Assembly: GCF_036588685.1 (NCBI RefSeq)
Contig: NC_086379.1
Span: 55,924,001 to 55,988,000 of the forward strand
DNA: 64,000 nt
From: Mytilus trossulus
Lineage: Eukaryota
Direction of reading: 5' to 3'
Within the stretch, counting starts at the first letter, position 1; every line of letters starts with the position of its first letter. Positions 8,545 through 64,000 of this stretch are shown in pieces. Both the position numbers and the translations under genes were made by a program. The notes below the pieces were generated by a model. The model saw nothing but the letters and a program-made list of their open reading frames with translations. It was not told where the DNA came from and did not search any database.

Positions 8545-9634
8545 GTATTTATTAATTGAATAATTTAAAGATAGTATATGAATTAAATTTTATTTATTTT
8601 AAAAGTTTATCTATTAACAAAATATTACATGTTGACTTGCAGTCTATATTATAGATATTATTTGCACCTCATGATATTTTTTTCTTTGATACTTTTTAAC
8701 ACTGCAAGAATTTTAAAGCAAATACTTCATATATGTTGTGTGAAATCAGTGAAATCAAAATTTCCACTGAAAGAGGGAATACCTCCAACCAATTTACTCA
8801 AGAAACCTTAATATTGTAATAGTAAATGACCTTAAAGAGGGGGCGTAGTTCCACGTGTTTTTATTTTTTGTTTAACTTTAGCCAGAGACTTATAATAAAT
8901 TTGTATTATATGTTATATTACTCTGATTTAGCTGATGCTATCATAAAACCACGTTGACTGAGCAAACATGTATGCATCCGACAACTTTCAGTCGATTGCA
9001 TATTGTTCAAGCACATAGTCATTGCATGTACTTTATGTTAGTTAATGATGACTGTATAAAAACTGATACACAGGAGCTAGTCTGTTTTAGCATATTTCGT
9101 TTAATAGTCTAGGTTCTGTTATTATGTACTGGGACAGTCAAGTTTAAATGAAATCTCAGCCTTACAATCCAACTTTATGCATCCAAAAAACGTTGAAGAA
9201 AATTCATTCCTATTGAATCAAATTATATATCACAGGCATATCTTCAGAATGAAAAAAAACATGAACCAAGCTACAAATATATATGTCTACATTTCTGATG
9301 TGTCGTTTTGAGTACAGTCCTTTTTACGTCAGTTCAATCCATTTAAAGACAAAAGTTTTAAGACTTTAAAGGGTTAGGACTCACGAACAATTCAGTCAAA
9401 ATAGACAAAAACACTGTATTTCAATAAGATTCAAAGTTGAAACTAACTTTTAAATGGTTTATGATATATGTATAGGCATTACAGCTGATTTGCGATATTT
9501 AACTTTTTCCATAAAAGGACAGTTTTCCCAGATTATTTCATGTTTTGGTAATGTTCTTATGTGTTAATTTTCAGTTCATAAATTTCTACACTTTTATGTT
9601 TTCAGAAGCCGTACCTATATTTAGACCTCCCAAG

Positions 9635-15214
<5,580 letters not shown>

Positions 15215-15969: not shown

Positions 15970-17830
15970 TAGCGAAAAAAGTAAAATTACAAAACTATTG
16001 ACTGACTCCTATGAAAATCAAAACGGAAAGTCCCTAAACAAATCGCAAAATCAAAAGGTCAAACACATCAAATGAATGGGTAACTACTGTCATATAACTA
16101 ACTTGGTACAGGCATTTTCTAATTTAGAAAATGGTGGATTGAACCTGATTTTATAGCTCGCTAAACCTCTCACTTGTATGACAGTCGCATCAAGTTCTAT
16201 CATATTGACAACGATGCGTGAACAAAACAAACAAACATTATAGGTAAAAATGTCAAACATAGGGGTACAGTAGTCAACATTGTATTATAATCTTGATCAC
16301 TAAAAAAAAACCACACAAACAAATATGTAACAAAGAAGTACAAAATGGAATATAGACCAAACATATTAAAAAAAATATAAAGACCATAATACACAAATTC
16401 ACTCTTGGTACAATTACTCAATGAAGAGATGTATAAGTACAGAGCCACGTCGTTGATGTATCAAAGAAACATAAAACGGCATACTGGTATAGACAAAACA
16501 CATTGGTTAATACCATTACAAGTGGATGATGTTCCCCGAAGTCGGTTGAAGACAAAACTTTACGACAAAAGAGGTGATTTCAGCTTTCCAATTGTGAACT
16601 TTCCATTTCTAAGTAGCAACATTCCAGCAGCACCTGCATACTGCATATCTCCCAAATGATACGATATTCCCGTGCTTGCATTTCCTATCATGATTTTCTT
16701 GATAGAGGGTTACTGCTTACAAGGAAGCTATTAAACCAAGAGTTCCAAATGGTGAAGTTGAAATCATCCCTTCGTAAATTTTACGGACGCCATCACGAGT
16801 TTGTTTACCGTTATGGAATAACCGTTTCACAAATGATATCGGATATGTTCCTTACGTCGTAACTACAATCCCCTTCCCTTTCATGAATTTGACCTACCGA
16901 ATTAGACTATTTACCGGATGTGTAATCACATAAGGTAGCACTCCACAGTTAGGTGTGTAGTTTCGCATTTTGGCCCCTGTGGATTTTTTAAATATGAGAG
17001 CTAGTGTGCAATAAAATTCATTTTTGGATAGCTGAGTATTAAAATAGCCTTTGTATTGGGTTTATATGAACATCAAGGTTATGTAATGTATGTAATATAG
17101 GCTGTTTTCTGTATGACAGTCCGTATTTGCATGTCCATACCATACATTGGTCCGGCAATTATTATAATGTTTTTTTCCAACTTTTTATCGCACGAACTTT
17201 GTGATTGGATTTTACGAAAAAATGAGGCGAAAGACACCCATTTTTTATTTGATCATTAGGAAGATTTAAGAAAACAGTTTCTAAAAAGGTATCACTCAAA
17301 GGCATTGAAATTCTAGTTTGATCCAAATTTTGGGGGGATATATGACATGTTCACCCCCCTTTTTGCAATATTTTATGGTAAATAAATGCTGAATGTTGCC
17401 ATGGATACACATAAAAGGAATTAATTTTCACCCTTTTAACTTTGGAAAATTTAATCTATGGAAGATACTGATTACATACATATGCACATGTACAACACAA
17501 ACAGTTAGGTTAATGTATTAGAAATCCAGGAATAGGAGATGATAAAACATTTTGGGGCTCATTTTTAATTTTATTTTCTAACTGTGGAGTGCTACCTAAG
17601 CAACACGACGGGTGCTGCATGTGGAGCAGGATCTGCTTACCCTTCCGGAGCACATGAGATCACCCCTAGTTTTTGGTGGGGTTCGTGTTGTTTATTTTTT
17701 AATTTTCTATGTTGTGTCATGTGTACTATTGTTTTTCTGTTTGTCTTTTTCATTTTTAGCCATGGCGTTGTCAGTTTGTTTTAGATTTACGAGTTTGACT
17801 GTCCCTTTGGTATCTTTCGTCCCTCTTTTT
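15970..17830 (+). mobile_element. Penelope-like retroelement relic (RT C-terminal fragment plus 3' tail), interrupted by a MITE
   Basis: Frameshifted translation RLKTKLYDKRGDFSFPIVNFPFLSSNIPAAPAY / IRYSRACISYHDFLDRGLLLTRKLLNQ...KFYGRHH. The tail 17600-17830 recurs at 27165-27370. Confidence 0.7.
16934..17596. mobile_element. PIF/Harbinger-type MITE, 663 bp
   Basis: Perfect 19-bp TIR GGTAGCACTCCACAGTTAG, with TAA target-site duplication on both sides. Confidence 0.85.
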
Positions 17831-20237: not shown

Positions 20238-21607
20238 TACGGGGCGCCGAATGGGACTCTTGTGGTTTTGTACTCAAAATTCAATTTTGTACGGACAAAA
20301 GTGACTTTTGTTCAACAAAAATGAGTTCAGTTTAACAAAATTTGTATCATACTACAAATTTGAAATTTTGTCATACAAAATTATCTATCAGCGGACAAAA
20401 GTCACTTTTGTCATGACAAAATTCATTTTTGTTACACAGACTTGACTTTTGTTACCTAATTTGAAAATTGAGCGACAAAAGTCAATTTTGTATTTAAATT
20501 AGTTTAGTTTGGTTTCTGTGAACTGATTTGCATACAAAATCGACTTTTGTTACACAAAAATTACTTTTGTTACACAAAATTGACTTTTGTTACACAAAAT
20601 TGACTTTTGTTACACAAAATTGACTTTTGTTACACAAAATTGACTTTTGTGAGACAAAATTGACAAAATTGACTTTTGTCTCAACAAAATTGACAAAATT
20701 GAATTTTGTCTCAACAAAATTGACAAAATTGAATTTTGTCTCAACAAAATTAACAAAATTGAATTTTGTCTCAACAAAATTGACAAAATTGAATTTTGTC
20801 TCAACAAAATTGATTTTTGTCTCACGAAAGTCAATTTTGTCTCACGAAAGTCAATTTTGTCTCATAAAAGTCAATTTTGTTGTTACAAAATTGAATTTTG
20901 ACATCACAAAAATGAATTTTGTCGTCACAAAATTGACTTTTGTCTCAACAAAATTGACAAAATTGACAAAATTGACTTTTGTCTCAACAAAATTTACAAA
21001 ATTGACTTTTGTCTCAACAAAATTAACAAAATTGACTTTTGTCTCAACAAAAATGACAAAATTGAATTTTGTCTCAACAAAAATGACAAAATTGAATTTT
21101 GTCTCAACAAAAATGACAAAATTGAATTTTGTCTCACAAAAGTCAATTTTGTCTCACAAAAGTCAATTTTGTCTCACAAAAGTCAATTTTGTCTCACAAA
21201 AGTCAGTTTTGTCTCACAAAAGTCAATTTTGTCTCACAAAAGTCAATTTTGTCTCACAAAAGTTAATTTTGTTTCACAAAAGTCAATTTTGTCTCACAAA
21301 ATTGAATCTTACCGTACACAATTGACTTTTGTGATTTAATTTCCATATCAGGTAACAAAAGTCAATTTTGTATGCAAATATGTTTATATTTGCATACCTT
21401 TAAGACAAAATTGACTTTTGTCATGACAAATATGAATTTTGTCATGACAAAAATGAATTTTGTCTACACAAATGAATTTTGTCATCACAAAATTGAAGTT
21501 CTCACAAAACAAGTCTGTAGCACATAGTTTTGTAAGACAAAAATGATTTTGTTATGACAGAATTGAATTTTGTACAAAACCACAAGAGTCCCATTCGGCG
21601 CCCCGTA
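20238..21607. mobile_element. Foldback-type non-autonomous DNA transposon (TACGG...CCGTA termini, IS3EU-like) with internal palindromic tandem repeats
   Basis: Perfect 36-bp TIR TACGGGGCGCCGAATGGGACTCTTGTGGTTTTGTAC, AATAT duplicated on both flanks, interior built from ACAAAA-N5-TTTTGT units. Confidence 0.8.
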
Positions 21608-23171: not shown

Positions 23172-34165
<10,994 letters not shown>

Positions 34166-36043
34166 TTAGAGAGCAAGACAACTGAGATCAACTATATCGA
34201 CACAAAAATTTGCAGCGCCATTGGTTTAATTCTCAAGACTTTATAATTAACTGAAAACGATTATCACCGCAATTATGGTAAGTAAAAATATGTATTTGTA
34301 TTTTGTTGACCCTCATGTTCACATATAGACTTTGAACCTTTCAGTCTGTCCTTTACGTGTATAACTTGTTGTAGTACATGTATACTGATAACCCTAATCT
34401 GTGTGGTTTTATGATTCGGCGTCTTTTTGTGACATCTTGTGCGGTAAGCGAATGTTTTTTTGTGGAGATGGTTGTTAATAAGTTACAGAAAGAAGCCCAG
34501 CTTTACCCTTAGTTATAGATCCCCTCGCACATCTTAGACGATTATTAAATGAATCTGTCATTATTTTTGATGATGTATTTATTACTACACTGCGCCATGT
34601 CACACATTGCTTTATAATGTTGATTTAGTACAGTAGCTCATCTGCCAAAAGTCAGTACAAAGTAACTAGACATTTTGCTTATCGTTATATTTGAATGTAT
34701 GAAGAATAGAGAGTGCGTCCATATACTACGAAATGTTGCACTCTGTTCTTACCGTCATAATCACCCTGGACGAATTTTCTTACTAAAATTTTCCATTTTC
34801 ACAAATTTTTACTACTGAATATAAACTTTGGAATTAAATATATGACTTAAGGAATATGTATATCAAATAATTGTGAATATGTATATCTCATGATATTTGT
34901 CCTTGACATATTGTAACAAGATTACATTCACACATTTCTTTTTTAAGTTCTCTTTTAAGTTGTTCATTCTACTCTTAAAAGTTCTGAAATAATAAATCCG
35001 ATTTGCTGAATTTATATATCTTATTATAAAATCATTCAAAGGACTTTACTTTTTGACACATCAATTCAATAAAGTTCATTTGGTCCGATTTAATCAGAAT
35101 ACCTTTCTGATACACGTTTGGTTACTATTAACTTACTGAACATTGATATTCCACCATGCGGGTAAATGGCAAAATCAATCGTGTACAATTCTGTATTTAT
35201 CATCTAGTCATTGTATTCGCACTTCTATCCAGTTTACAAACAGTTCTTGAACGTTTACATTTTCGTAATGTTGCTGGTTCTTTCAGTTACAGATATGTAT
35301 ACAGTGTATTATTAATTTGGTATGTTTCGGACTAATAACCTAAAAATATAAATGTTAGCAATTCATTGAGTATGTTTCTTGAATTTTTTCCGTGTTTAAA
35401 AAATTAGTCTTATTATGTTTTTCCAAAACCCTTGTTTGATCTTGTTTCCTCTTGAGCAAATTGTATACAATACTTTTGATTCGCGAAAAAGCGGGATAAC
35501 TCAAAAAGGAAAATGAACATAAATGAGTACATCGTACTTTCTTGTTACACAAGTTATAATGCACTTTTCTTAATAAATGTTTACTTATTTTTTTATGTCA
35601 TATGTGGTTTTTAGAATATCATATGCATTATCATCAGCACTAGAATTCTAAATACAATATATTACATGGTGTAATCTCGATAATTTCCCTCTAAAATTTT
35701 GACCATAGAATAACAGTAAGCCTGCTCAATCTTTATCTTTAATACTAGTAGATGTGTTAGTTAATGCCGTGTCATCCCTATTACGGAATTCATAAAATAT
35801 TGCACCTTCTCTTTTCCATTCTATGGTAATTTTCGGTAAATTGTCACTAAAATTGACTATAAAAACTCAAAAGAGTGTTTTATTGTCATATAAATTACGT
35901 GCATTTCGCTTAATAATTTCAACATATTTTGTACGACCTTTGCTGTTTTCATTTTACTATGTGTTAAGTTTTTCTGCACATGACATTTGATGTCTTTGTA
36001 TCCTCCGAATGATTTTTTAATCTTTGTTGGTATTTTCTTTATC

Positions 36044-37575
36044 TTTGTTTTGCCCATATGTTGGTATCTTGTGCATTTATGTTTTAGCAAGTGTTTGGAT
36101 CTCCTCACCTTTGTTTTGCCCATGTGTTGGTATCTTGTGCATCTATGTTTTACCAAGTGTTTGGATCTCCTCACCTTTGTTTTGTCCGTGTGTGGGTATC
36201 ATGTGCATCTATGATTTACCAAGTGTTTGGATCTCCTCACCTTTGTTTTACCCATGTGTTGGTATCTTGTGCATCTATGTTTTACCAAGTGTTTGGATCT
36301 CCTCACCTTTGTTTTGTCCATGTGTTGTTATCTTGTGCATCTATGTTTAACCAAGTGTTTGGATCTCCTCACCTCTATTTTGCCCATTTGTTGATATCTT
36401 GTGCATCTAAGTTTAACCAAGTGTTTGGATCTTCTCACATTTGTTTTGCCCGTGTGTTGTGTTGGTATCTTGTGCATCTATGTTCTACAAAGTGTTTGAA
36501 TCTCCTCATCTTTGTTTTGCCCATGTGTTGTTATCTTGTGCATCTATGTTTTACCAAGTGTTTGGATCTCCTCATCTTTGTTTTGCCCATGTGTTGTTAT
36601 CTTGTGCATCTTTGTTCTTCCAAGTGTTTGAATCTCCTCACCTTTGTTTTGCCCATGTGTTGGTATCTTGTACATCTTTATTTAACCAAGTGTTTGGATC
36701 TCCTCACCTTTGTTTTGTCTATGTGTTGTTATCTTGTGCATCTGTGGTTTACCAAGTGTTTGGATCTCCTCACCTTTGTTTTGCCCATGTGTTAGTATTT
36801 TGTGCATCTATGTTTTACCAAGTATTTGGATCTCCTCACCTTTGTTTTGTCCATGTGTTGTTATCTTGTGCATCTATGTTTAACCAAGTGTTTGGATCTA
36901 CTCACCTCTATTTTGCCCATTTGTTGATATCTTGTGCATCTATGTTTTACAATATGTTTGGATATCCTCACCTTTGTTTTGCCCATGTGTTGGTATCTTG
37001 TGCATCTTTGTTTTACCAAGTGTTTGGATCTCCTCACCTTTGTTTTGCCCATGTGTTGGTATATTGTGCATCTATGTTTAACCAAGTGTTTGGATCTCCT
37101 CACTTTTTTTTTGCCCATGTGTTGTTATCTTGTGCATCTATGTTTTACCAAGTGTTTAGATCTCCTCACCTTTGTTTTGCCCATGTGTTGGTATCTTGTG
37201 CATCTATGTTCTACAGAGTGTTTGGATCTCCTCACCTTTGTTTTGCCCATGTGTTGTTATCTTGTGCATCTATGTTTTATCAAGTGTTCTCACCTTTGTT
37301 TTGCCCATGTGTTGGTATCTTGTGCATCTATGTTTTACCAAGTGTTTGGATCTCCTCACCTTAGTTTTGCCCATGTGTTGGTATCTTGTGCATCTATGTT
37401 TTATCAAGTGTTCTCACCTTTGTTTTGCCCATGTGTTGGTATCTTGTGCATCCGATTTTTAACCAAGTGTTTTGATCTCCTCATCTTTGTTTTGCCCATG
37501 TGTTGTTATCTTGTGCCTCTATGTTTTACCAAGTGTTTTGATCTCCTCATCTTTGTTTTGACCATTTGGTGATAT
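36044..37575. repeat. 66-bp satellite (~23 copies), a dimer of related 34+32 bp subunits; degenerate relatives extend to ~38670
   Basis: Unit TTTGTTTTGCCCATGTGTTGGTATCTTGTGCATC-TATGTTTTACCAAGTGTTTGGATCTCCTCACC; 22-aa periodicity in the ORF track. Confidence 0.95.
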
Positions 37576-39620: not shown

Positions 39621-42600
39621 TTAAACAGGGACTGGTTTGGCTCCTCCTGATGGTGGACATACAAAAAATGTAGCTTTGCCACTAAACTTTTTCTGAAAGA
39701 ACAAAAAATCTAGAATTTAACTACCGTAACATTATCTAAAAATCACTAGAAAATATATCCATCAATGTATGATTCAACTACTGTAAGTTCAGAAATCATT
39801 GGGAAGTTTTATTAATAAGATCTTGCATTATGACATCTGATACATGTATCTGTATGAAGCCTTTCCTGTGATCACAATAACTAATCTCTTATCTTGGTTG
39901 GTCATTTCAAAATTTAAATTATTAATGCTCACAATTATCTCTGAATTAACAGTATTAAACCTGTTATTTGTTATGTTTTGTCTTTTTCCACAATGATAAT
40001 ACGAGGCATAATTGAAACTTCATCCACATTTTAATTTTAAAAGTTTTGCTGTTTATATCAAAAAAATAATGTAGCTTGATGCTAATCTCACATCTTTTTA
40101 CTTACTTTAATATTGCTGTAAAACAAATTGAAATTTTACCTGTATATGTTCAATAGCATTATTGACAGCTGATTGCTTCACTAACGTAACTGTACAACCA
40201 CCAAATCCCCCTCCTGTCATTCTGGAACCATACACGCCATCTACTTCTAATGCTGCCGTTACTAACTCATCTAACTCGGCACACGACACTTCATAATCAT
40301 CTCTGTAATAGATACAAATGTTATCATTCCATCCCAATTACTTTTCACTTAAATCAAACCATAACATTTTAAGAAATATATTGATGAATGTATTGAATGA
40401 ACAGATGTGCCAAAGGGGAAATGGTTAATTGGTATTCTGTAAACCAACTTATTTTCACAAGCAATTTATTATCACGACTTTTACGATTAGAAAAATAATG
40501 TGAAGGTAAATTTACATTAATTTCTTGGACAGAAATCAAAAACTGCATGTGTCAACAAAATATATCTTTAACATAATGTTTGTTATAACATTTACATATC
40601 TGATTTGAATATTTATCTTTTCTAGACCTGTTCACTATGTTTCCAAGGCCTTGAATTAATTTACCAATTGTCAATTTTTCAGAAATCTATAATTTTTGGT
40701 TCATTTGGGATGTAAAAATCTGTGTTTTAAAATTTAAATCTTGACACATTATGTTCTTTTTACATGTTTTACCATCAAACTTGAACATTTTTTACCTTGA
40801 AACATTGAACTTAATAATATGGCTCTTATTGAATTTACTCCATTGAACCATTTGATTGTGTCAAATAAACCCATTTATTGCCAGAAAAACTTACAAATTA
40901 ATAGATACCACTATTACTAAAAAAAACTGCTAATTGTAATGGTGTACTGTGTGATTCTTCAGTTTTATAAGGATATTACTGTTTGGTTCTTTCTTAAAAA
41001 GTCTTACCGTAGAGAATTGTGACTTGCAACCATAAGTTGTCCAAACTTTTTATAATCTCCATTTTCAAGTGCATTTGCTGCTTCCTCTGTACGTGAAATT
41101 TCCCCTATCACATGTCGGACACGTTTAAATGTCTCTTCATCTAATTTGTCTTTGTTTTCTGTTGTAAAAAGATAATAGAATAAGGTTTGATGTAGTTTAG
41201 TAAATTTTGTATGAATTAAGGTGAACTGCATGCAGCTGAGATTTTACTATGATATTAGAAAAAATATTCCAATGCCAATACACGTATTACTATTAAAGTT
41301 GAATTGTTTAAAAAAAATATTTGATAAAATATCAAAACAAAATATCAAGAATAATGAAGAAATGTTTAAATCCTTTACCGTCCAAATCTTTTTCTGTTGC
41401 ATCACGAAGGCTTTTCTTTCCCATGGTCTTTGCAGACATTTCACACTGTCGTCTGCGAGTTGGATATTCTGATCCTGTCAACTGATGTTTCACATTGGAA
41501 TTTGTGACCAGAACAACAACACTGGAGTCTTTCATTGGAACAAGTTTGCTTTCTAATGACCTACAGAGCAAATTAAATCAAATGTTTATAGTAAATAATG
41601 ATTTTTTTTCTTCAAAAAACTAAATCTATAATTAACAAGAGTGCACACACTGAAATGTCTCGCCTTCTTTACTAATCATTGATATTATGTTGATAGTCCT
41701 AAGTATAAAGCTTTATTACAACTGTCACATAAACGTTACATTAACCAAGATAACTAAACAAAGACCAATGAACCATGAAAATGAGGTCAAGGTCAGATGA
41801 ACCATGCCAGGCTGACATGTACAGCTAAACAATGCTCCCACACATTAAATATAGTTAACCTATTACTTATAGTTGAATAAAAATAGACCAAAACACAAAA
41901 AATTAACACTGAGCAATGAACTGTGAAAATGAGGTCAAGGTCAAATAAAACCTGTGCGACTAATATAGAGATCATAAAATATTTCCATACACTTAATATA
42001 GTTGACCTATGGCTTATAGTATTTGATAAAAAGACCAAAACTGAAAAAATTAACTTTGACCACTGAACCATGAAAATGAGATCAAGGTCAGATGACATCT
42101 GTCTGCTAGACATGTTCACCTTACAATCATTCCATACAACAAATATAGTAGACCTATTGCTTAAAGTGTGAGAAAAACAGACCAAAACACAAAAACATCA
42201 ACTATAACCACTGAACCATGAAAATGAGGTCAAGGTCAGATGACACCTGCCAGTTGGACATGTACACCTTCAAGTCCTTCCATACAACGAATATACTAGC
42301 CCTATTGCTTATAGTATCTGAGATATGGACTTGACCACCAAAACTTAACCTTGTTCACTGAGCCATGAAATGAGGTCGAGGTCAAATGAAAACTGTCTGA
42401 CGGGCATGTGGACCTTGCAAGGTACGCACATACCAAATATATTAATCCTATTACTTATAATAAGAAAGATTTCAACATTACAAAAAATCTCAACTTTTTT
42501 TTCAAGTGGTCACTGAACCATGAAAATGAGGTCAAGGACATTGGACATGTGACTGTCGGAAACTTCGTAACATGAGGCATCTATATACAAAGTATGAAGC

Positions 42601-45600
42601 ATCCAGGTCTTCCACCTTCTAAAATATAAAGCTTTTAAGAAGTGAGCTAACACCGCCGCCGCCGTCGGATCACTATCCCTATGTCGAGCTTTCTGCAACA
42701 AAAGTTGCAGGCTCGACAAAAAAAAATCATACCCCCTCCTTTTGAAGTTAAAAGGTTGTTCCCTTATACTCTCTCTATCTTTGAAAGTAACTTTTCAACA
42801 GTTTTATGGAGTTATTAATTGTGCTACTGTCTAATTGATGTATATTACCCCACATCTTTTTAAATACTAAATGCAGATTATCATGTTTCCATTGTTTTGA
42901 TACATAAGATAACATCTAGTAGACACAAATTCAGTGCAGTCAATAAAAAAAAGCTGATATTTGATTGAATAATGATCTGACTGATTATCATATTGTTCTG
43001 ATTGTTTTCCTTGGTCTTAAACAAAGAAATGATGTTAAACAGATTCAAAACCATGTTATTTCCATGACTTAAGCTTACCTGCAGTCTATCAAAAGAGCAT
43101 GGTCCTTCTTAGCCAACATTGAAATAAACTGGTCCATTATACCACAAGGCATCCCTGCAAACTCATGTTCAGCTTTTTGACAAGCTAATGCTTTCTGTGT
43201 CTTTGGCACAGTTGTATCTAATATCAGATCATTTAGCTCATCAAGAAAAGTATAAGTTCCAACTTCTAATGATGCTGAACTAGAGACTCCACCTCCCAAA
43301 GGAACAGTTGAAACAACAACAGCATCAAATGAACACATTGGTCCTGCAACAAATACATGAAAAAAAAATTATTCAACCTTCAGTATTTTTAATAAGTCTG
43401 CCAAGTCACTGAAGCATATATAGCACATAAATAGTGAACAAAAATAGAATACATTGTATCTACAAAATGTAAATTAGTGCTCAACCAATAAAAGCTAGAA
43501 TTATGAACTATAATGGTTTCCTTTTTTTTAAATTGTTATTTGGATGGAGAGTTGTCTCATTGGCACTCATACCACATCTTCCTACTGGTATATCTATGAC
43601 TAAAATACATTCATTTCTATATCATGTTTTTTTTAAAAAGACTAACACATAAAACTGAGAATGGAAATGGGGAATGTGTCAAAGAGACAACAACCCAACC
43701 GTAGAAAAAAATAACAGCAGATAACAGTTTACTATAAAACTAATCTCCCACCGAAGTCCTCATAAAATACATGGAAATCTAAAAGTTGTAATGAAATACA
43801 TCATTTTTTAATATACCCACCTTTATAGTTTGCCACAACTCCTTTGACATAATTTGCCCACATTGGTTCACCAGGTGATAGACTATTTTTGTTTGATGGA
43901 ATAGGAAACTCCACATAGTTGTCCTTTCCAATGCTTGCTAATGTTAAAACTCGACACATCCCAGAATCTGTCTTTTTCCCAACCAACAATGTAACCAGAG
44001 GTAATGCCTGTAAAATTATTAGCTTTTGTTAAAATGTTACTATGTACAATCATAGGTTATGATGCTGCTAGTCTCTGATGTGGTTTAGCCAGACAAGCTG
44101 GGGCCATGGGACCCACGGCCCCAGCTTGTCTGGCTAAACAGATGTGGAAGTCAGAGTAATCTGGACTATGATGCTGCTAGGTCTGAAAAATCATAACAAT
44201 ACTGTCTGGGACAGTGGGTTGAACAATAATTTGGCAAAATATTGGCAAACTTTTAAAATTAAATGTCACAAATAAAATTCATATAATATGATCTCAGGCA
44301 CTTGTCTCGGAAAAAAATTTCCTATATTCCTTAATATTAATTCTTACCTTAATATTAAGGTATACATGTATATACCAGGGGAAAAAATCTGAGACATTTT
44401 TATATTGAGCTTCCAAATGGTGTCAAATTATATTCTATCTTGAAAATTGTTGAACATATAGGATCGCATATTTCTCAAAACAAAAAAGGTGATCTTCATC
44501 ATTCTACAATTCTTTTCAAAGTTTTTTCAGAAAATATATATATATCAAATTTGGTGATCATCTGCCTAAAAAAGAGCATTAGCTGTCAAATTCATGTTCA
44601 CCAATTTGACTCAAATTCTCAGATTTGATTTGTAACATACTCAAAGTAAATATACAAATTTAAAAAAAAATAAAAATGCATGGACTGGATAATATGTATC
44701 AGCATTTCTTTGTATTTCAGTCTAGACACCATCCAATCAAACATTGAGACTGAGACTACTTTGTTATAGTAGTCTCAGATTGAGACCACCTTTGAAAAAG
44801 ACTGTCTTTTTTATCTGTATTCTGGACAATGTTTATATCTGTAATCAAGACAGAAAACAGCAATGCCCAGTAAATTAGTATATTTTTTACCATTTTTTTT
44901 AATTATGCAGTTATTCTTTATATTTTGGCAACCCAATTGTTTACTATTCTTTATTTTGTATGCTCATTTTCTCTATTCCTAATTTTGTTTGCCCATTTTT
45001 CTCTATTATCTCTTTTCTGTAAACCAGTCATCCTTCTTTTAACTGTTAAAGTATGTTTGTAATCATAATATAATTATTATATTGATAAATATTGAATTAA
45101 TATATGAGAACTGATATTAATTTGAATCATGTTGGAATGTAGGACAAGAAGCCATGATCACAGTCATGTCCCTTTGGTTACATGTATAAATTCAATTGTG
45201 TGTTATCCTCCAGCAAACAAGAACCCCCACACAAACAAGCAATCAATCATCCAGGGGTGAAGGAGAAAAGCAGCTCCGTTAGCAATGTTTTACTGTAAAA
45301 AGTAGGTGTGTGTATTGTAACCAATCAAAAGAAAGCTTTTCATTGCGTCAGCTTTAACCTTGAATGATGTTTCTTTTGAAACGTGTAAATTCACATGAAA
45401 AAATAATGATATTGATTGTCTTCGGTTATGTCCAAATACAACCCTTCTTCGACCAATCCCAACTTGAAAGCATCTCTCCGGCCAACAACGACTTCAAATT
45501 CAAACTCACACAAGTTGTATATTATCAGAGACATATAATACAATATATGTCTCTGATATTATTATATAATCCGTTTGTTTCAAGAATAGTTGTATATATA

Positions 45601-45874
45601 GTATTATTTTTTTCAATGAAACTCGATAAACAACTTAACCTTTTCACTCTTATAAAATTTAATAAAAGAGTATATATAGCAGGGATATATCTAAATTATT
45701 TATTGTACTTGCCATCGGGAAAACAAATCCATCATTGTAATCCGTGTGTTCTCCGATCAAATTTACTCTTCCCGGTCCGTATGCAGCCTTTTCTGGTTTG
45801 TACCCAAATTTTTGTTGAAAAGAATTTGTTGCTTCCTTCAATACATCACTTATTTCAGGTATAGTTTCTGCCAT
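39621..45874 (-). CDS. GALK1: Galactokinase paralogue A (canonical), 393 aa, 7 exons, first intron GC-AG
   Basis: Exons 45713-45874, 43821-44007, 43079-43343, 41379-41560, 41008-41158, 40140-40302, 39621-39692 (1182 nt). Motifs [53 protein letters not shown]. Intron positions are identical to paralogue B. Confidence 0.95.
41634..42725 (-). mobile_element. Helentron-associated non-autonomous element (HINE/DINE-like) in GALK-A intron 3
   Basis: Terminal hairpin TGTCGAGC...CTGCAAC-AAAA-GTTGCAG-GCTCGACA next to a (GCC)n microsatellite. Internal ~150-bp tandem repeats (GAACCATGAAAATGAGGTCAAGGTCA). AACAAGAG end. Relatives at 46310-46920 and 54430-60240. Confidence 0.7.
44069..44168. mobile_element. 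100-bp hairpin MITE, Academ-like (TAGTC...GACTA, 9-bp TSD)
   Basis: TGATGCTGC is duplicated at 44060-44068 and 44169-44177; internal 23-bp perfect inverted repeat. Confidence 0.65.
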
Positions 45875-46112
45875 GGTAATGTCAACCTAAGTAAATACTC
45901 AAATACCCGTTCAGAGAACTATAAATAAATATCCTTGACAGTACAGTAAAACCTGAACATTAATCGAAAATCCGGTTTAAATTGATGTCTTTCCCCAGTC
46001 GACGAGCGCCCCAGGTTTAGGAATATTTAGGTCAGAGACAATATCTCAAGTGGTAGGCCTATAATAATGTCCATCGGAGGTGTGTCTTTAAAAGATCAAA
46101 ATCAAGGGTCAG
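45875..46112. promoter_or_regulatory. Candidate bidirectional promoter for GALK-A (-) and PRXL2A (+), with a PRXL2A 5' exon ending at 46112
   Basis: CpG-containing stretch directly upstream of the GALK-A ATG; donor CAG|GTATGC at 46112; acceptor TTTGCAG at 47976, four nt before the PRXL2A ATG. Confidence 0.45.
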
Positions 46113-47713: not shown

Positions 47714-47980
47714 TATCATGCTTATGCAAACGTTACAAATACATGTATTAGGACAAATTACCTACTGGCTCATATGAAAACTATTGAAACTTTGATGTAC
47801 AAAATAATTTAATTGTTGTTACTAAGAATTTTTTAGAAAGCATTATAAATGACTGGAATAAACAACCATTATTGGTTGTTGATTAGTTTATCTTTCAAGG
47901 TTCTATGCAATGTAAGGAAGACATTATGACAAGAATAGGTGAAACTTTTTAAATTTTTAGAACTTTTTATTTGCAGGGTG

Positions 47981-50900
47981 ATGTCAATATCTAAAGCATT
48001 ATTAAGTATAGCAGGAATAACTGCCGGAGCTGCTATCCTTATAAATCTACCTACTCAATTCTTCATGGCTACTGAGAAAGCTACGCTTCAGTATTTACAC
48101 ACTGCCAAACTACAGACAATAGATCAGACCAAAAACAATTTTTCAGTGAGTACATTATGTATTGCAAATCATTCATAATTGGATGTTATGTACATGTAAT
48201 GATATGACATGATGTCACTAAGTCATATCATTACGTCACATGTAAAAAATGTATAAGATTAAAGTGTAACATATGCAAATTTATTATCATTAAGTTTTAA
48301 TGATAAAGTATTTGACACCGATTGATATAAAACAAACTCTCTGAATATAAAGAGAACAAAATTACCAACTCCATTATGTCCAAGGAAAATTCAAATGAGA
48401 ATAATCCCTTATCGATTTGCAAAATCAAAAGTTAATAACACATCAAATCAATGGAAAACAACTGTCATATTCCCGACTTTGTGTCGGCAATTCCTTATGT
48501 TGAAAATGGTGGACTATACCTATTCAGACCTATTTAAAAGCAAAAGCTACAGAAATTATGTACTTTGAAGGATCCTCTTTTGGAATTTTTTATGATGCCT
48601 AGAATATCCATAAACTAAAGCATAAATTCAAAGGCAAATGGTAAGCAGTCTGAACTATGCTTATACAAAACCATCTTTGTATGCTATATGCTTAGAACCT
48701 TTATTGTATTGACCCATCAGAGCTATGTAGATACTGTCTATGTTACAGGCATCAGATCTATGGAAAGATAATGGTGTGGTTCTTATGGCAGTCAGAAGAC
48801 CAGGATGATCTTTGTGCAGAGAGGTAGTTTATAGTACTTTTACATTTTTATATAGATTTTATAATGAAAACAGTGCTTGACATGGACTACAGGATAGCTT
48901 TTATCTCTGTTGATTGTAAATCTTACTGTTGAATGTTTACACGCAAAACATGAGTTACAAATAAAAGAAAAGAAAAAAAATCAAATAGAGTAGAGATGAT
49001 AAACCAAAGGTCATTCCAAAGATAAATGTGTCAGTGTGTGTCAAATTAAGATAGACTTTGTCATGATACATTTGTCAAATTACAGTAAATGGAAAAAATT
49101 TCACAATCCATGAAGAATTTAACTTGACTCCAAAAAATTTTCATTAGTCAATACTTTATGAAGTTTGCAGTTTTTTGCATTAAAAAATGGTTTAAAAAGA
49201 TCAAGAAAACGTCAAAAAGAAAAAAAAACCAGCATTGTCTCCTGTGTCATAATTTCATTCTTTTTGGTTTTATATAAGAATGTTATTCTATTGTGTTAAG
49301 ACATATTATTCTTGTTTTTATTTCAGGAAGCCATTGGGCTGTCCTCTCTGCTACCTGAGCTTGAAGCCCATCGAGTCCAGCTGCATGCTGTAGTTCATGA
49401 GACTCTGGGAGTTGATGAGTTCAAACCATTTTTCAAAGGAAATGTTTATCTAGATTTAGAGGTATAAAAGTATTGATTATTTTTAAAAATCCATAAAATT
49501 GAAAATTTTCAATCAATTTTCGAACAAAAGACTTATGAGAATAGTCCTTTGAAAATTATTTAAGAATTCTTTCTGCAAGACATTATATGCAAATTTACCC
49601 ACCTCCTGTTAGGGAATTTTCTCTCTGTGTTGAAGACCAATTGGTGGGCTTGGGCTGTTTTCTGCTGTTTGGTTGGGTTATTGTATCTTGACACATTCCC
49701 CATGTCCATTTTCAAGTCTACTTTCTGGGTCAGTTATGTATTTTAAATCTAATTGTGAGGTAAAGAATATCAAAAGACCATCCCATTGTATTACTTGATT
49801 AATTTTACATTGATAAGCATGACTTAAAATTATTTGAATCCATGGACATACTATATCTATCCAATAAAAGATCAATACTGATGCTGATGCTGATTTGTAT
49901 TCATCTTTCATATTACCATATTCAGGTAAGTGAACATTTTTTAGTAATTGACAACTCTCTTTATTTGTAAATAGAGTATTCGTTTAATTCATTAGCCTTG
50001 TAAGCTACTTTTCAATACACTTGTTTTAAGCAACAAGTACAAAATTTACCTATTCATATTCTAAAGGACAACTTTGATAATAGTGTACCTTTATTAATGT
50101 GGAATTGTAAAAAAAAAATTATTGTAGAAAAAGTTTTATGGACCAAAAGAGAGGTGGACATCATTGTTTAGTCTTCTTAGATTTGGTGTCATGAAAAATA
50201 TCTATCGTGTAAAAAAGAAAAGTATTCCTGGTAACATGATAGGTGAAGGAAGACTTCTAGGAGGTAATTGATATGTTAAACTTAGTTAAGTAGAAATACA
50301 ATATAACATACTAGATTATATACTGAGGCTGTGCTATTTGCACATTCAATTGCGTTGACCATATATCCATTTGTGATATTCAGTCACTGACTGTATATCA
50401 CCTTTTTATGATTTAATTAATGTGTTACTGTAGAGTTATTTATGAGTTAATAAAAAATACAGGTTATTGAAAATTTAAGTTGTCTGCTCCAAATTAAAAA
50501 AATAGTTTTTACTCTTTTAAATAAAAATATTTTATTTGGAAGGGTTATAGGAGTTGCAGTTTAGAGAGATTAACCATAAATTGTCTCATAATATACATTT
50601 TATTTGTACTCTACTCAAAACAGGATAGAAATACTCAGCAAACTCCCACTTTCTACCTGTTTCAAAGACATGTACAAAAAATAATTAATTCTGAGACAAT
50701 GTATGGTTCTCCTATATATATCAAGTGTTCCATTGATATATTGGAGATTTTTAAAGGCACAATAAACTCTCAAAATTAAGGGCAACTATTTGGTCAAGTA
50801 TAATCAGTCAGGTTCTAATGTTAATTTACATGTAATGTATGCAGATATCAAATATTCATACCTGCCAAGTTTTCAAAATGCCCATGGGGGTTTTACGTGC

Positions 50901-51843
50901 AAGATGGCTGTCATACTCCTAAAAAAAACTTCAAGTGGGCCTTCAAATACAGTGTAATGATGTTTTTTGGCTTCTTCATACCTTTATAAGCCTCAATTCA
51001 TTGTAAAATTAATTGTTTTGTTAAAATTGTGGACATAATTTCTCTTTAAAAAAATCAATTTGGGAGCCTCCATGGGGGAAATCCCCCGCAAATAGTGACA
51101 GTTGGCAGGTATGAATATTTTCAACCTAGAAAGTATATTTTCCTAAATTCAAAATTTAGATGATGCTAAAGCATGAAATGAGGTCAAGGTCCCTTCAGGA
51201 TGTTCTTACTTAGTCAATGAAATGTACAATTTGTTGTGCATAGACACTGGCAGTATGTTTTCGTATGAAGATTTCTGAAGCGTTATCATTATGAAAAATA
51301 AAAGTTGCAGTAAGTTATTGAATTAGAGTTATCTTTCTTTGCATGAATTATTTCGTCTAAAACTTGGATTACCATTAAATGCATTTGAAGCTGCCACTTT
51401 GTATAGATGTACATGAAACATGCAGGACATATATCTATTTAGAGAAAAGCTCATTGAACTTTATGATATCATTGTGAAGACATTTTTATTCACTGAGAAA
51501 CGTGTAAAAAATTAGTCAACACATCAAGGAAATAATTATAAAAAGTAAATAAAAAAGTTTTTTTTCTATTTTAATGTCATAAATTTTGGTAAGATTACAA
51601 TGAGAAGTTCTAACATACCGTTATATTTGTTTTATTAAACTAATATAGTTTTGCATAGGTTTTATTTTTTTCAAGACAGAGTTAAGTGTACAATATTTAA
51701 AGATATCTTTTCTTTTTGAAGGTGTATACGTGATTGGACCAGGAGAGCAAGGTATATTATTTCAATATCATGAGAAAGAATTTGGTGATCATGCTGATCT
51801 GAAAGATATAATGGCTGCTGTTGAAAACATCAAATCTACATAA
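47981..51843 (+). CDS. PRXL2A: Peroxiredoxin-like 2A / FAM213A / selenoprotein U family protein, 210 aa, with in-frame UGA (predicted Sec) at 48806-48808
   Basis: Exons 47981-48145, 48749-48823, 49327-49461, 50128-50263, 51722-51843 (633 nt). Translation ...LWKDNGVVLMAVRRPG[U]SLCREEA...KKFYGP...GEGRLLGGVYVIGPGEQGILFQYHEKEFGD aligns end to end with PRXL2A, which has RRPGCFLCREEA. N-terminal hydrophobic anchor. SECIS downstream. Confidence 0.93.
50857..51113. mobile_element. MITE in a PRXL2A intron
   Basis: TIR CATACCTGCCAA / TTGGCAGGTATG flanked by AATATT on both sides. Confidence 0.7.
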
Positions 51844-52235
51844 TATATATATAACATTTGTTTACACCTAAGTGCCTTTTGATCAAACTATGCCTAAATA
51901 TAAATAGATTCTATGTTTTTCTATTTTTTGTTTATGACATCTGATTTTTCTTGAAATTTGACTCTCAAAAATTGCAAAAACAAATATATGTTCATTCGCT
52001 TACTTTTAGAGGTATTACAATTTGAATTTTGCATTTTTGGGGTAAAAACAGAAATTTCTTGTTTCAATACTTTTCCTCAAAAACTTTCAAATAAAAAAGA
52101 GAAATTTTCATCATTTTTCTTATCAAAGTATTCAAAGCTTACAATATTTAGTATATTAAAAGTAAAATAAAAAAAAATTAACCCCCAAAACAAATTCAAA
52201 ATAGAAAGTCCCTGAACAAATAGCAAAATCAAAGC

Positions 52236-52385
52236 TCAAACAAAATCAAGGTTAAATGCAATACAATTTGTGTTACAAATGTCAGATAAAATAAAAAGTC
52301 TCAAACAAAATCAAGGTTAAATGCAATACAATTTGTTGTCAGATAAAATAAAAAGTCTCAAACAAAATCAAGGTTAAATACAAAA
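52236..52385. repeat. ~60-bp tandem duplication in the PRXL2A 3' UTR
   Basis: CTCAAACAAAATCAAGGTTAAAT occurs three times. Confidence 0.8.
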
Positions 52386-53514
52386 CTATTTGTGTGACAT
52401 CTTACAGTAATTGATGAGATAAGTCATCACCTGTTACTTTTACATGCTCTTTACGGTATTGATTTTTATTTTAGTTCAAGGCTACACAAACATCAGTTAA
52501 AGGATGAATAATAAGTCTTGTAACTTAATGCTTCTGCCTTTACTTTGAAGTATGTTGCTTTTGTCTTTTACTTGCAAAACTCATCAAAATAGAAACTTTT
52601 GACAATCTTTCACATTTATTTTTTGAAATTAGCATTTCTTCCCTACAAATTCTAGTTTTATTAGTGTCATAACAAAAGCAGATTTATATAAAGATGATAA
52701 TCAAAATATTTCTATTTAATGCCATAAATAAATGATAAAAGGATTGTTTGACCACCACATTATAGTTGGGTTCAATGTTTATGTATTTTTATATTGTATA
52801 TTAATTAGAACAAAGTATTAGAAGTATATTTAAAATGTTTAAACAGTTGTATTTTCTGATATTATTTTATTTTCATTACATGACAAATATAAACAAACAG
52901 ATATTGTGAATTATATATGGTTAGTGAGAGTACATTTTTTTTAAAGGTACATGTATTAGCACATTAATGCGCCTTTAAAACAGAAAACTAATTTAAAAAT
53001 TCTTGGTTAGCTATGGATATCATATGATTGCTGGCAATGTCAATACTAGTACACTTTTGATAAGAAAGTCAGTTTAAACAAATGTAAGACAATAAGTTTA
53101 CTTCTTTTAATTGATTTCATACAAAAGTGAAACAGAAGTTTATTCATGATTAATAGATGGAAGAGTATCTTCAGCAAGTTTACAGTAAAAAAAAATATCT
53201 TTAGATTTTACTGTATTTTTAACATATAAATTCTTTTGGTGTTGCTGTTAGCATTTCACCTTGAAGCTACCATGAAGCTGATAGTAGAACCCGATTGTTT
53301 TTGTTCCTCACAGATAAAATTGGTGTTAAGATAAAAATGGTGCAATGATTTGCATTGCCTCTGTTATGTATATTTGCCATGTTGTGACCAATGTTATATT
53401 TTATTTGTTATGTTGTGACCAATGTTGTTTTATATGCCCTGTTGTTGCCTGAGTTATGTTTATTAGCCACATTGTTGTCTGTATTATGATTTATGTGCCA
53501 TGTTGAAAGGATTT

Positions 53515-53583
53515 TATACCATACCTATGATATCTGAAGTATAAATTTTCTTACTACTTTAGATGGATCTTCTAATGGTTATA
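53515..53583 (+). promoter_or_regulatory. SECIS element (type I) in the PRXL2A/SelU 3' UTR
   Basis: ATGA(53527-53530)-T-ATCTGAAGTA-[TAAATTTTCTTAC]-TACTTTAGAT-GGAT. UGAU/GGAU non-Watson-Crick quartet, 10-bp helix II (one G.U), AAA 12 nt after AUGA, lower helix ACCAT/ATGGT. Lies upstream of AATAAA at ~53910. Confidence 0.88.
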
Positions 53584-54959
53584 TATTATCCTGACAATGT
53601 TGCATCTAGTTTCATATTATTGTAGTGCCACAAAATCATTGGTCATGTTGACCTTATAAAAACTGTGTTCATTCTATATGTTAGGTAGCTTTTGAGCATA
53701 ATTCAAGAGCTAGTTTAGATATGATTATATTCCAGTATTCCTCTAGTTATTCCCTGGGAGTTGTTTATATTCAGAAATCATTGGGTGATTTTTTTTGTTG
53801 TGTTTGAGGGCTTTTTAAATAGCCTTATCAGCATTATTGACAATTTGATATTAGAAATTAGAGTTATTTGTTATCTAAGTATATTGTTTTATATGTTTTA
53901 TGATGTTTAAATAAAGTACAAATTTTAATTACACTTTTTTAGTCTTATTTTGTGAAGAAAGACCATACTAGCTCCTGACCCCTATAGAAATAAAATGCTC
54001 CTCAGTGGGAAGTATGATACCACATACATTGGACCCTGAACATTAAGGGCAAGTATATTCACAGCATTCAAGTTTGATACAGGTTTGAATTTGAATTTTG
54101 ATTGAATATTTGACACAGAATGGATGTTGTCTAAGAACTTTGAAATTGGACATCTACATATTATGGTCTGATATCCAAACTTCAAATTTTAATAAAATCT
54201 ATCAAAGTTGAATTTTAGACCCTTTGGACCTCAATGTTGACCAATTTGATAACAGGGTAAAAAATCCAAAATCAAAATATGATTCAGCATATCAAAGAAC
54301 CAAATATATTCAATTTTTGTTGAAATCAAATAAATTTTGATTAAGGACCCTTAAATTTAACTGCTTTGAAAACAGAGCCTAATGTAAAAAAAATCCTCAC
54401 TGAATCCAAAGTTGTTTCATACAATAACAAAACAAGAGTGCATAAACTGAAATGTTTCATCTGCTTTACTCACCAAGATTGATTTTATGATAGTCCTAAA
54501 GCAAGTATCATAATGAAACATGATAATGATGTCAAGGGCATACAAAAACTGCCAGACTGACATGTACACAATTTACATTCACCAAATAAAGTTGACTTAT
54601 TGCCTAAAGTATCAGAAAACAGACCAAAACACAAACAAGAGTGTACACACTGAAATGTTACGCCTTCTTTACTGACCATTGATTTTATATTGTTAGTCCT
54701 AAATATAAAGCTTTTCTACAAGTATCACACACACTTAACATGATCCAAGAAAATGAGTTAAGGTCAGATAAACCGAATGGGAAATATTTGTACATCTTAC
54801 AATCATTAAAAACACAAAATATAGTTGACTTATTGCCTATAATTTCTAAGAAACAGACTTTACAAGGAAAAATAAACATTGACCAATGAACCATGAAAAT
54901 GAGGTTGAGGTCAGATGAACCATGCCAGACAGACATGTACACCTTACAATCCATCTATA

Positions 54960-61400: not shown

Positions 61401-63332
61401 AAATAAATGTTGAGATTTCACTGGTTTTTCGTCTTCATTATGTTATATAGACGTGTGATACAGTTTACAGAAACCACAACTCAATAACATTCAATTAATC
61501 CAAAATCTGAGGAGAAAAATCATAATTTATTGTTTTAAATGCACAGTCCACGTGATACTATTTACAATCTAACAAAAATATAACATGGTAACAGTTTTGT
61601 GACAGCTCTCTCTCACACATACAAGTTAAATATCACATTGCATCACAACAGTCACATGACACGCTCCTCAATCCATGTACAACATAAGAGATAGTTAGAA
61701 ATGAAGAGTTAAAATGCATCCACATATAAAAGAATGTTTGTTCAACATATTTTTTATCTGTTACAAATCATTTAATATGATAACTTTAGTTACTGTAGAA
61801 ACAAAAGAAAACAACAGTAAATGGTAAAATGCCAGAGTAAGATATCAATTGATAAGGCACATTTGTAATCCTGAAGTTACACCGGGAATATGCCACCCTT
61901 TACATCAACAGATAAAAGTTTCAGACCAGAGAAAGAACAAATATGGTAAAACATCCTCTAAATGTATTTGTTTTTACTTTTAAGGGAGTGAAGCGACTAT
62001 TTCAAGGGAGATAATAACTTGCATATTATTTTAGGCTACCAGTAATTTTTCCTAAAAGTGTGGAATGGGAAATTATTTGTTACAATTACAAAACAAGTGC
62101 TCATACAGGCAAAGCTACACATTAATTTTATGAGGTAACTCCTTCGGTCAATCATTTCAGAGGTTCAAAATATCAAATGAAACTTATTTAGTGAACACTT
62201 TGTTCACACATAATTTAACAAAACTGTGAACTGTGAAAACCCTTTCCTATTTGAATTTGTGTAGACTGGGGAGATCCAAATACATGTGGTGTCAAGACTT
62301 TCATGTCAAATAGAATATAACCATTTATTCAGGTAGCCAAATTTTGGGATTTCAATTGCAGTGAATAAAAAAATAAAGGTAAACTTGTGTCCAACAAATG
62401 TAAGTACTTAGAAATTATCTCTTTGGGTATCTCAAAATATACTATTAAATTTATCTCCTCAAAACTTGGGCAAACCAATCATTTCACAACTGACATCAGT
62501 TATTATAATATAAAAATGCTTTGAGGTATTTATTTCTTATTTCAAATATATCAGCTGTGATATAAACATACATACTGAAACAATAGTGTGTAGCATCCAT
62601 TTCAATTTTAAACCTTAGTATCAAATTCCAAATAAGGTCATCAACCAATCACTTTTTTGCTTTAATTCTTTTTGGAAGCCCTCAATACATCGGGGAGCGT
62701 CGAGAATATATGCCCCTTTCTTTTAACAAACGAGTTTTTGAAGCCTGATAAATAACTAAAGATTCTATAATATGAAATACTTAAAAATCTTAAATAAAGC
62801 TGTGTTATAAATATAGATAGTGACAATTACCAATCCTGTACATGCAGTTCGTATAAATTACATTGATTGTTTTAACTGAAACGCAGTGAGTTTTTTGTGA
62901 CTTGAACCAAAAATTCATTTCTCAAAAATGTTTCTTAAGTACTGGTAAAAATTCATTTTAAAAATTCATAAATGTATGAAAGTATACAAGATGCAAAGGC
63001 TTTCAAAATGTGTATTAGTAGAAATTAGAATGTAAGATAAGAAATAAAGAATAACACATACTAATACTGCTCTTTGCCAAATTCCCATCAAGGGAAAATT
63101 TTGTTCTTTTACATCAAAAAAGACACAAATATAAAATACAACTTAATAAATAAATATTTCTTGCATACAACTTGTACTTTCTCTCACACAGATCACATTA
63201 TAACCTGACCTGAACATGTTTGTGATTAACTATGTACAATGAATGCATAACTTGAAACACATCACCGTGGTCCTCGAAATTCAACAAATTATACACAAAT
63301 ATTAAAAATGAAATAATTTAAGTTCTACAACA

Positions 63333-64000
63333 TTACCTCCTCATCATTCCATTCATATTGTTCAGGGATGGCGGGAGGCTACCGTTAATGTAACTGTATG
63401 CGTACATATTGTTCGACTGAGAAGGTTGCATGTGTTGAGGAAAATGTTGTTGTGCTGGGTTCATATTCATGTTCATGTTCATATTCATATTTAACATTTG
63501 CATTTGCATTGGTGGAGTCTGACCCAACTGATTAAGTGGAAACCCATGATTTATATACCCTGGGTTTATCATAGGCTGCCTCATACGATAACTGTCCAAT
63601 AAATTACTATAACCCGTGATCATATTAGATCCTGGACGAATTGTCACATTAGGTGTAAATGTCATATTAGGATTAACTGTCACATTTGGACTTTTTCGCA
63701 CAGAAGATGAACGCTGCCTTTGAGTTGGTTGTTGTTGATATTGTTTATATGGTCCAACAAGTCCTGATGAATTTTGCTGGTTTGGAACGGGAGGTGTTGT
63801 CATGCCTCGCATCATAGGAGGTGGAGTCATGTTATGAGGAGGAGGTGGTGTAAGATTTGGGGGAGGAGTCATGGTATTATTGGGCATGAGATCTGGAATT
63901 CCATTTGTTAATTGCTGCAGTTTTGCTAGATCACAACTAATGTTCTGAGGTGGATATGGTCCAGGGCCACTGTTCTGTCGACTTACAGATGGTGGCTGTT
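63333..64000 (-). CDS. KAT6: Histone acetyltransferase KAT6A/KAT6B (MOZ/MORF), C-terminal Ser/Met-rich domain, last exon (partial)
   Basis: Frame is open to the window edge. Contains LAKLQQLTN, MTPPPNLTPPP, Met/Asn-rich runs and a terminal ...MMRR*, hallmarks of KAT6A/B C-termini. Candidate distal minus-strand AATAAA at 61526-61531. Confidence 0.85.
   Translation of the reverse strand, partial: QPPSVSRQNSGPGPYPPQNISCDLAKLQQLTNGIPDLMPNNTMTPPPNLTPPPPHNMTPPPMMRGMTTPPVPNQQNSSGLVGPYKQYQQQPTQRQRSSSVRKSPNVTVNPNMTFTPNVTIRPGSNMITGYSNLLDSYRMRQPMINPGYINHGFPLNQLGQTPPMQMQMLNMNMNMNMNMNPAQQHFPQHMQPSQSNNMYAYSYINGSLPPSLNNMNGMMRR

Follow-up and report, generated by a model that had tools for sequence, protein, structure and literature searches.

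A type I SECIS element within the 3' UTR of a mussel selenoprotein U1 gene, and a hairpin predicted behind its UGA codon in the spliced mRNA

Within a 64,000-nucleotide stretch of the Mytilus trossulus genome (contig NC_086379.1, positions 55,924,001 to 55,988,000; hereafter the window), the 3' UTR of a spliced selenoprotein U1 (SelU1) gene holds a type I SECIS at 53518-53579. We propose that this element very probably drives Sec insertion at codon 75, an in-frame UGA, and that a hairpin predicted to arise 7 nt past the UGA after exons 2 and 3 are joined likely aids it. The anatomy of the SECIS, the splicing of four introns, the presence of the UGA exon and of the SECIS region in RNA, and the conservation of the TGA in related loci are direct observations. 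The features are collected in Table 1.

Table 1. Features of the SelU1 gene and its 3' UTR (positions count from the first letter of the window)
Feature	Position	Strand	Evidence or remark
SelU1/PRXL2A coding exon 1	47981-48145	+	ATG 47981; exon model; joint 48145-48749 in X1, X19
Coding exon 2, in-frame TGA 48806-48808	48749-48823	+	both flanking joints in X1, X19; 3' joint also in X24
Coding exon 3	49327-49461	+	Pfam AhpC-TSA_2 E 1.2e-5 on exon alone; RNA joints
Coding exon 4	50128-50263	+	exon model, RNA joints
Last coding exon, TAA 51841-51843	51722-51843	+	exon model, RNA joints
Predicted SRE-like hairpin, spliced mRNA	48816-49351	+	5' arm 48816-48823 plus 49327-49332; loop 49333-49336; 3' arm 49337-49351, bulge 49341
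3' UTR, ~2.1 kb	51844-53930	+	X1 depth, X19 contig end 53880; 3' end inferred
Five AATAAA before the SECIS	52090, 52166, 52290, 52347, 52727 (range 52090-52732)	+	hexamer scan; no sign of use
Dispersed-repeat remnant	52158-52249	.	blastn 78% to window 15977-16065 and 23515-23572
57-nt tandem duplication	52231-52400	.	TRF
Degenerate 31-nt tandem repeat just before the SECIS	53362-53445	.	59 nt shorter in X19, X24
Type I SECIS element	53518-53579	+	sequence, pattern and shuffles, folding, Rfam alignment, RNA contigs/reads over region
SECIS helix I	53518-53522 with 53575-53579	+	5 pairs
SECIS 5' core	AUGA 53527-53530 plus U 53531 (UGAU 53528-53531)	+	
SECIS helix II	53532-53541 with 53555-53564	+	10/10 pairs, G-U counted
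SECIS apical loop, 13 nt	53542-53554	+	AAA at 53543-53545
SECIS 3' core GGAU	53565-53568	+	
AATAAA, likely main polyadenylation signal, U-rich sequence upstream	53910-53915	+	depth drop; X19 contig end

The SelU1 coding sequence comprises five exons and 210 codons and holds a single in-frame TGA, at codon 75, in the context RRPG-U-SLC, which is predicted to be a UxxC redox motif. Readthrough yields 210 residues, and a stop at the UGA leaves 74. The N-terminus encoded by exon 1 is hydrophobic (Kyte-Doolittle 19-residue maximum 1.89 at residue 3) and is likely a signal or anchor. By the names and scores of its database matches, rather than by a tree, the gene is provisionally placed in selenoprotein U1 (PRXL2A), one of three SelU subfamilies: the named matches are PRXL2A-like, and prostamide/PGF synthase scores far more weakly (E 4e-9). 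With SelU1 (SELENOU; Cys homologue PRXL2A/FAM213A/C10orf58; Pfam PF13911) the mussel protein shares the RRPG-U-x-x-C motif and the AhpC-TSA_2 domain. Invertebrate SelU1 is described as Sec-containing in the available portions of two publications (PMC3473315; PMC3316567), and our literature search found no paper on a mussel SelU1 gene.

Evidence from RNA is provided by sequencing runs X1 and X19 (contigs) and X24 (raw reads), with a fourth run, X21, adding 1 read only; these are four of 24 listed runs. None in the list was catalogued as RNA, and the spliced joints indicate that X1 and X19 contain RNA. X1 and X19 show every one of the four introns spliced out, the raw reads of X24 do so for two of them, and one X19 contig joins the coding exons. 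The M. edulis protein P0003, named Peroxiredoxin-like 2A, is identical at 169 of 171 residues, on both sides of the UGA, and its model lacks the first 28 residues as well as 11 residues around the UGA; a clam model (P0006) omits the same UGA stretch. The X1, X19 and X24 joints listed use the end of the UGA exon and not the shortened donor of these two models. We conclude that splicing in the public mussel and clam models bypasses the UGA, and that a gene mis-annotated as a plain peroxiredoxin-like 2A most likely encodes a selenoprotein. As a SECIS the element is ordinary; it corrects this annotation. Among 55 protein homologues, 36 begin two residues past the UGA position, four span it (with C, C, C and W) and 15 do neither; starts just past the UGA are expected when gene callers stop at this codon.

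The UGA exon is 75 nt long with phase 0 at both ends, and its skipping would give an in-frame, Sec-less protein. One gene model (P0008) joins exons with the UGA exon skipped, which is probably an annotation artifact; such a joint is absent among the RNA joints listed.

A preliminary description of the sequence had pointed to a canonical type I SECIS about 1.7 kb into the 3' UTR, on the strand of the UGA gene. Each part that it named (AUGA-U, a 10-bp helix, a 13-nt loop with AAA, GGAU and a lower helix) was found in place on the plus strand; in the spliced mRNA, 1684 nt separate the stop codon from the core AUGA downstream, and 2092 nt separate the UGA from it. The apical AAA stands 12 nt past the core UGA; the SECISearch pattern places unpaired apical adenines 11-13 nt after it. 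A strict pattern, defined by the core, the AA spacing and a helix II with no fewer than 8/10 pairs, matched nowhere else on either strand of the 64 kb. In dinucleotide shuffles of the 2.1-kb UTR, a match with 10/10 helix II pairs occurred in 0/2000, one with 9/10 in 6/2000 and one with 8/10 in 68/2000. A bulge-tolerant pattern added two weak matches, at -1.0 and -2.3 kcal/mol against -9.5 kcal/mol for the SECIS. The folding z-score of the element is -3.5 over 101 nt (0/200 shuffles) and -2.2 over 81 nt (3/200 shuffles), with pair probabilities of 0.95-1.0 for helix II (in 300- and 600-nt context) and 0.61-0.97 for helix I. Unconstrained RNAfold pairs two of the apical AAA adenines; the family model suggests that the AAA is unpaired.

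The core UGAU/GGAU, able to form tandem G-A/A-G pairs, fits UGAN/KGAW, which is the type I core consensus in the accessible text of PMC3753652. The assignment to type I and not type II follows the Rfam alignment, in which two of three pairs of the apical mini-helix are non-standard, a third helix thus being absent. In common with eukaryotic type I elements, the mussel SECIS has the core, a helix I, a helix II of 10 pairs where about 10-13 are usual, apical adenines, no third helix, a 3' UTR location in a gene with a UGA, and a distance from the UGA within range; it differs in its 29% G+C and in a UGA distance above the mammalian mean. In the parts of PMC3316567 available, the mammalian UGA-to-SECIS distance ranges over 207-5207 nt with a mean of 872 nt, so that the 2092 nt of the mussel mRNA falls inside the range and above the mean.

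An Infernal score was one of the checks proposed in the preliminary description. The Rfam SECIS_1 model (RF00031) aligned over its full length to a 121-nt stretch (E 0.0011), but the 26.8 bits obtained lie under the gathering score of 35. The SECIS went unreported in the scan of the whole window at gathering level, and an E-value scan of a 2.8-kb stretch returned chance matches only and missed it. The low score may be explained by the very AU-rich composition of the element. SECIS-like hairpins of SelU1 relatives behave alike: across the 15 of 19 loci scanned, four reached 31-33.5 bits, again below 35. Elements of this kind therefore escape the 35-bit cut-off, which is set for the library and does not define the class biologically.

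These related SelU1 loci (n=19) were drawn from a metagenome scan and are 40-59% identical to the mytilid query. Twelve of them reach the UGA codon, which is TGA in 11 (two of these, L013 and L014, being identical in sequence) and TGC in one (L018); the other seven fall short of the codon. SECIS-like hairpins lie behind eight of the 19 loci, and a looser scan added a ninth (L013). Strict and looser scans found no canonical SECIS in L001, L003 and L004, which are UGA transcripts with 816-1744 nt of 3' UTR, nor was one found in L012, L015 and L016; these contigs may be cut off or their elements atypical. Locus L018 (457-500; 5632-5692) carries TGC for TGA, yet has a SECIS-like hairpin 229 nt past its stop and a hairpin behind the codon. 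Since the SECIS-like hairpin is retained, the loss of Sec may be recent, and L018 possibly represents a recent Sec-to-Cys change.

In close mussels the SECIS is conserved. Among the differences listed, the X19 and X24 alleles leave the core, the AAA and helix I intact, and the changes within the element comprise two in loops, at 53524 and 53548, and one in helix II, at 53561. The last turns a U-A pair into U-U, no compensating partner change being among the differences listed, and weakens the constrained fold from -10.9 to -6.7 kcal/mol. Covariation across mytilids, to which the preliminary description had looked for confirmation, was thus not seen: the listed differences include no compensatory change, and the one helix II change among them breaks a pair. 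This comparison covers close mussels only, as the distant SECIS-like hairpins align too poorly and were pre-selected for pairing.

Transcription of the 3' UTR extends through the SECIS. RNA contigs and reads cover the element, and an AATAAA noted earlier at about 53910, downstream of the SECIS, is present at 53910, some 30 nt beyond the end of the RNA contigs. In X19, contig depth is 29.9 over coding sequence and 29.2 over the SECIS, and the SECIS contig stops at 53880. In X1, depth is 69.9-74.1 over coding exons, 80-133 in bins 52394-53677 and 94.6 over the SECIS, against 0-0.8 in three unique intron bins; the bin 51966-52179 dips to 23, after which depth recovers. An X1 contig spans 52667-52853, across the hexamer at 52727, with zero differences. 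The raw reads of X24 number 4-6 over coding positions and up to 10 over the SECIS. Such figures are to be read in the light of contig depth being a poor measure of expression and of oligo-dT libraries favoring 3' ends. The transcript link between UGA and SECIS rests on the continuous X1 depth, no single contig carrying both. The joints listed include no UTR intron, and no run shows a pile-up of transcript ends, at a raw-read depth (~4-11) that is too shallow for a minor short isoform.

The mid 3' UTR (52394-53349) is well covered in X1 and barely in X19 and X24, and 53466-53880 is ~94% alike; the long 3' UTR may be partly lineage-specific, although a gap in coverage is no evidence of absence. 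The degenerate 31-nt tandem repeat was considered as a helper of the SECIS, an idea dropped since mussels differ in its copy number. Reads of X24 run in a single direction over the coding exons and in both directions over the SECIS, in small numbers. A convergent gene overlapping the UTR was set aside as their source, the nearest minus-strand coding candidate, found by eye, lying beyond 63300.

Behind the UGA, the spliced mRNA is predicted to form a hairpin of 14 pairs. The intron 48824-49326 lies inside its 5' arm, so that the stem needs splicing. When spliced, the 60 nt past the UGA fold at -27.0 kcal/mol, compared with -13.6 kcal/mol for synonymous shuffles (0/1000 as stable), and the same region folds at -5.4 kcal/mol unspliced; pair probabilities in the spliced CDS are 0.91-1.0. 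In a comparison whose register was fixed from the window, with L014 dropped as a duplicate and seven loci short of the region, 11-13 of the 14 pairs persist in 10 of 11 related loci and five in L009. The Cys-form locus L018 is among those that keep the hairpin (13/14 pairs). Three distinct genomic loci (L013, L016 and L018) show the intron, and its position is identical in each. Third positions of four-fold codons agree at 20-48% between lineages; with these sites near-saturated, shared ancestry alone should not keep the letters of the hairpin.

This conservation takes the form of kept letters and not of covariation. A two-sided change is seen in one of 13 pairs (C-G in five, U-A in four and unpaired in three of 12 sequences), and the same change swaps Gly for Glu; covariation over eight spliced loci does not rise above shuffles, 379/500 of which reach the score. 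When the three junction codons were fixed, which removes splice-site constraint, pairing of the 3' arm exceeded that of synonymous shuffles with a combined P of ~3e-5 over eight lineages, treated as independent and with the window's own gene left out. Likewise leaving this gene out, the consensus energy of the region across six lineages is -12.1 kcal/mol, with the next region of 147 CDS windows at -3.1 kcal/mol.

The predicted post-UGA hairpin resembles a Sec redefinition element (SRE). SREs are coding stem-loops that are non-essential but stimulatory in tested cases, according to the available text of PMC5727441 and PMC8704476, and the portions seen of several papers name them for SELENON, SELENOT, SELENOS (SL1) and SELENOP (SRE1) (PMC8704476, PMC5727441, PMC12936836, PMC6844570, PMC3541580). 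The mussel structure, itself predicted only, is like known SREs in being a stem-loop that starts 6-8 nt past a Sec UGA; known SREs are conserved across species, and the mussel pairing is kept in most related loci. It is unlike them in that a conserved intron interrupts its 5' arm. As SELENOP has a conserved junction 26 nt past its first UGA (PMC5133445, in part), SelU1 may not be alone in having a junction within a stem of this sort. No report of an SRE in SelU was found in the literature searched, the scope of which excluded most subscription journals, the original SRE survey and supplements; a word look-up in the available text of PMC8704476, PMC12936836 and PMC5727441 returned no SelU.

It is highly improbable that the SECIS hairpin arose as a chance fold or persists as a relic, with the UGA acting as a true stop in a gene under decay. 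The sub-threshold Rfam score, the pair-breaking change in related mussels and the omission of the UGA from the public mussel and clam models would all fit such a history, but it is contradicted by the failure of every UTR shuffle to reach the SECIS match, by a frame that stays open and matches P0003 almost throughout on either side of the UGA, by TGA in 11 of 12 relatives, and by RNA joints that, as listed, include the UGA exon end instead of the shortened donor. A second alternative grants that the SECIS functions and holds that regulated cleavage at an upstream AATAAA, best at 52727, yields substantial SECIS-less mRNA and so switches the full-length protein off. The preliminary description had suggested such an on/off switch from hexamers at about 52090 and 52727, and both are indeed among five that precede the SECIS; in a comparison of six hexamers, the sequence downstream of 52727 was the richest in G/U (0.64). 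This would be a known kind of regulation. In human SELENOP, a poly(A) site between two SECIS elements causes loss of SECIS 2 in 10-25% of mRNA (PMC5133445, in part), and a human SELENOS variant lacks its only SECIS through alternative 3' UTR splicing (PMC3628699, in part). We nevertheless consider the switch improbable for mussel SelU1, and the suggestion gained no support. Five hexamers in the 1684 nt from stop to SECIS compare with 2.9 expected from the window rate (P 0.17) or 4.0 from the gene's introns (P 0.37), a count at background; their complete absence would be rarer (P 0.06 and 0.02). Three of the five sit in repeat-derived sequence, one in the dispersed-repeat remnant and two in the 57-nt tandem duplication. 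Depth shows no step-down from CDS to SECIS in X1, X19 or X24, an X1 contig crosses 52727, and transcript ends do not pile up, although the depth data are coarse and oligo-dT 3' bias could hide a short form. A related transcript (L006) passes an AATAAA at 889 and reaches its SECIS-like hairpin at 1415. The SELENOP long/short ratio is constant across tissue and selenium (PMC5133445, in part), the SECIS-less isoforms of SELENOS and SELENOP have been measured whereas none was seen for mussel SelU1, and the UGA of SELENOS is the penultimate codon, which leaves nearly the whole protein, whereas a stop at codon 75 leaves 74 residues of SelU1 and likely leads to decay.

A third explanation accepts the SECIS and denies the post-UGA hairpin any role in recoding; its letters would be retained because splicing needs them, as splice-site consensus, as an exonic enhancer or for pairing of exon ends in the pre-mRNA, or would follow from a conserved peptide. 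We regard this as possible, if somewhat on the unlikely side. A conserved junction falls within the 5' arm, and unusual conservation is seen at further junction codons (56 and 170) too. The one pair with a two-sided change comes with an amino acid swap, and the Cys form L018 retains the hairpin, but L018 also retains its SECIS-like hairpin, so that the Sec loss may be recent. The excess pairing of the 3' arm in most lineages, which persists with the junction codons fixed, argues against this explanation, as does the hairpin being the sole conserved structure among the CDS windows. Its position and size moreover match those of the SELENON SRE, which begins 6 nt past the UGA (PMC3628699, in part). 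At somewhat less than an even chance we place the proposal that SelU1 mRNAs of animals carry an ancient, unreported Sec redefinition hairpin, whose arms would meet only once a conserved intron, 15 nt past the UGA, has been removed, so that splicing would license efficient Sec insertion jointly with the distant 3' SECIS. The predicted junction-spanning hairpin is the best lead from this work. SREs are known from few selenoprotein families only, and a hairpin split by a conserved intron, common to genes with near-saturated synonymous sites, offers a simple way to test the influence of coding-region structure and splicing on UGA decoding.

For the reading we favor, that of a functional SECIS serving the UGA of SelU1, the known eukaryotic pathway would supply the steps. 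The G-A/A-G core would form a kink-turn that binds SBP2, and SBP2 would recruit eEFSec, together with Sec-tRNA, to ribosomes at codon 75. The likely effect of the coding hairpin is to hold back the ribosome or to disfavor termination. The product would be a 210-residue thioredoxin-fold protein with a UxxC site. The main mRNA would end behind the AATAAA at 53910 and always carry the SECIS, with the upstream hexamers being background. Expression is likely tuned in the ordinary manner, by competition between Sec insertion and termination at the UGA. This codon lies 15 nt before the next junction and 286 nt before the last, and given the latter distance termination would likely trigger nonsense-mediated decay under the 50-nt rule (PMC5133445, in part).

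Upstream of the coding exons, a likely first exon with an ATG at 46067 (46067-46112) would be joined to 47977-47983. Were the donor after 46112 used, a 16-codon upstream frame would open and end in a UGA that overlaps the main start (UGAUG); a weaker donor after 46107 would give an in-frame N-terminal extension instead. The X19 coding contig aligns from 47974 with 53 extra letters upstream, which fits the 46112 donor; that exon is outside the stretch compared. SelU1 (~46060, plus strand) stands head to head with a galactokinase gene (45874, minus strand), their first ATGs being fewer than 200 bases apart, an arrangement that suggests a shared promoter. Two galactokinase-like genes are arranged in tandem on the minus strand (~24000-34200 and 41300-45900), each with its own N-terminal exon.

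Elsewhere in the window, a tektin gene occupies 9515-15214 on the plus strand, with Pfam PF03148 matching its first large exon at E 7e-42. On the minus strand, 63300-64000 holds a proline-rich coding stretch, recognized by eye and possibly a downstream gene's last exon. Long tandem-repeat arrays at ~20590-21340 and 35860-37570 contain many overlapping repetitive open frames.
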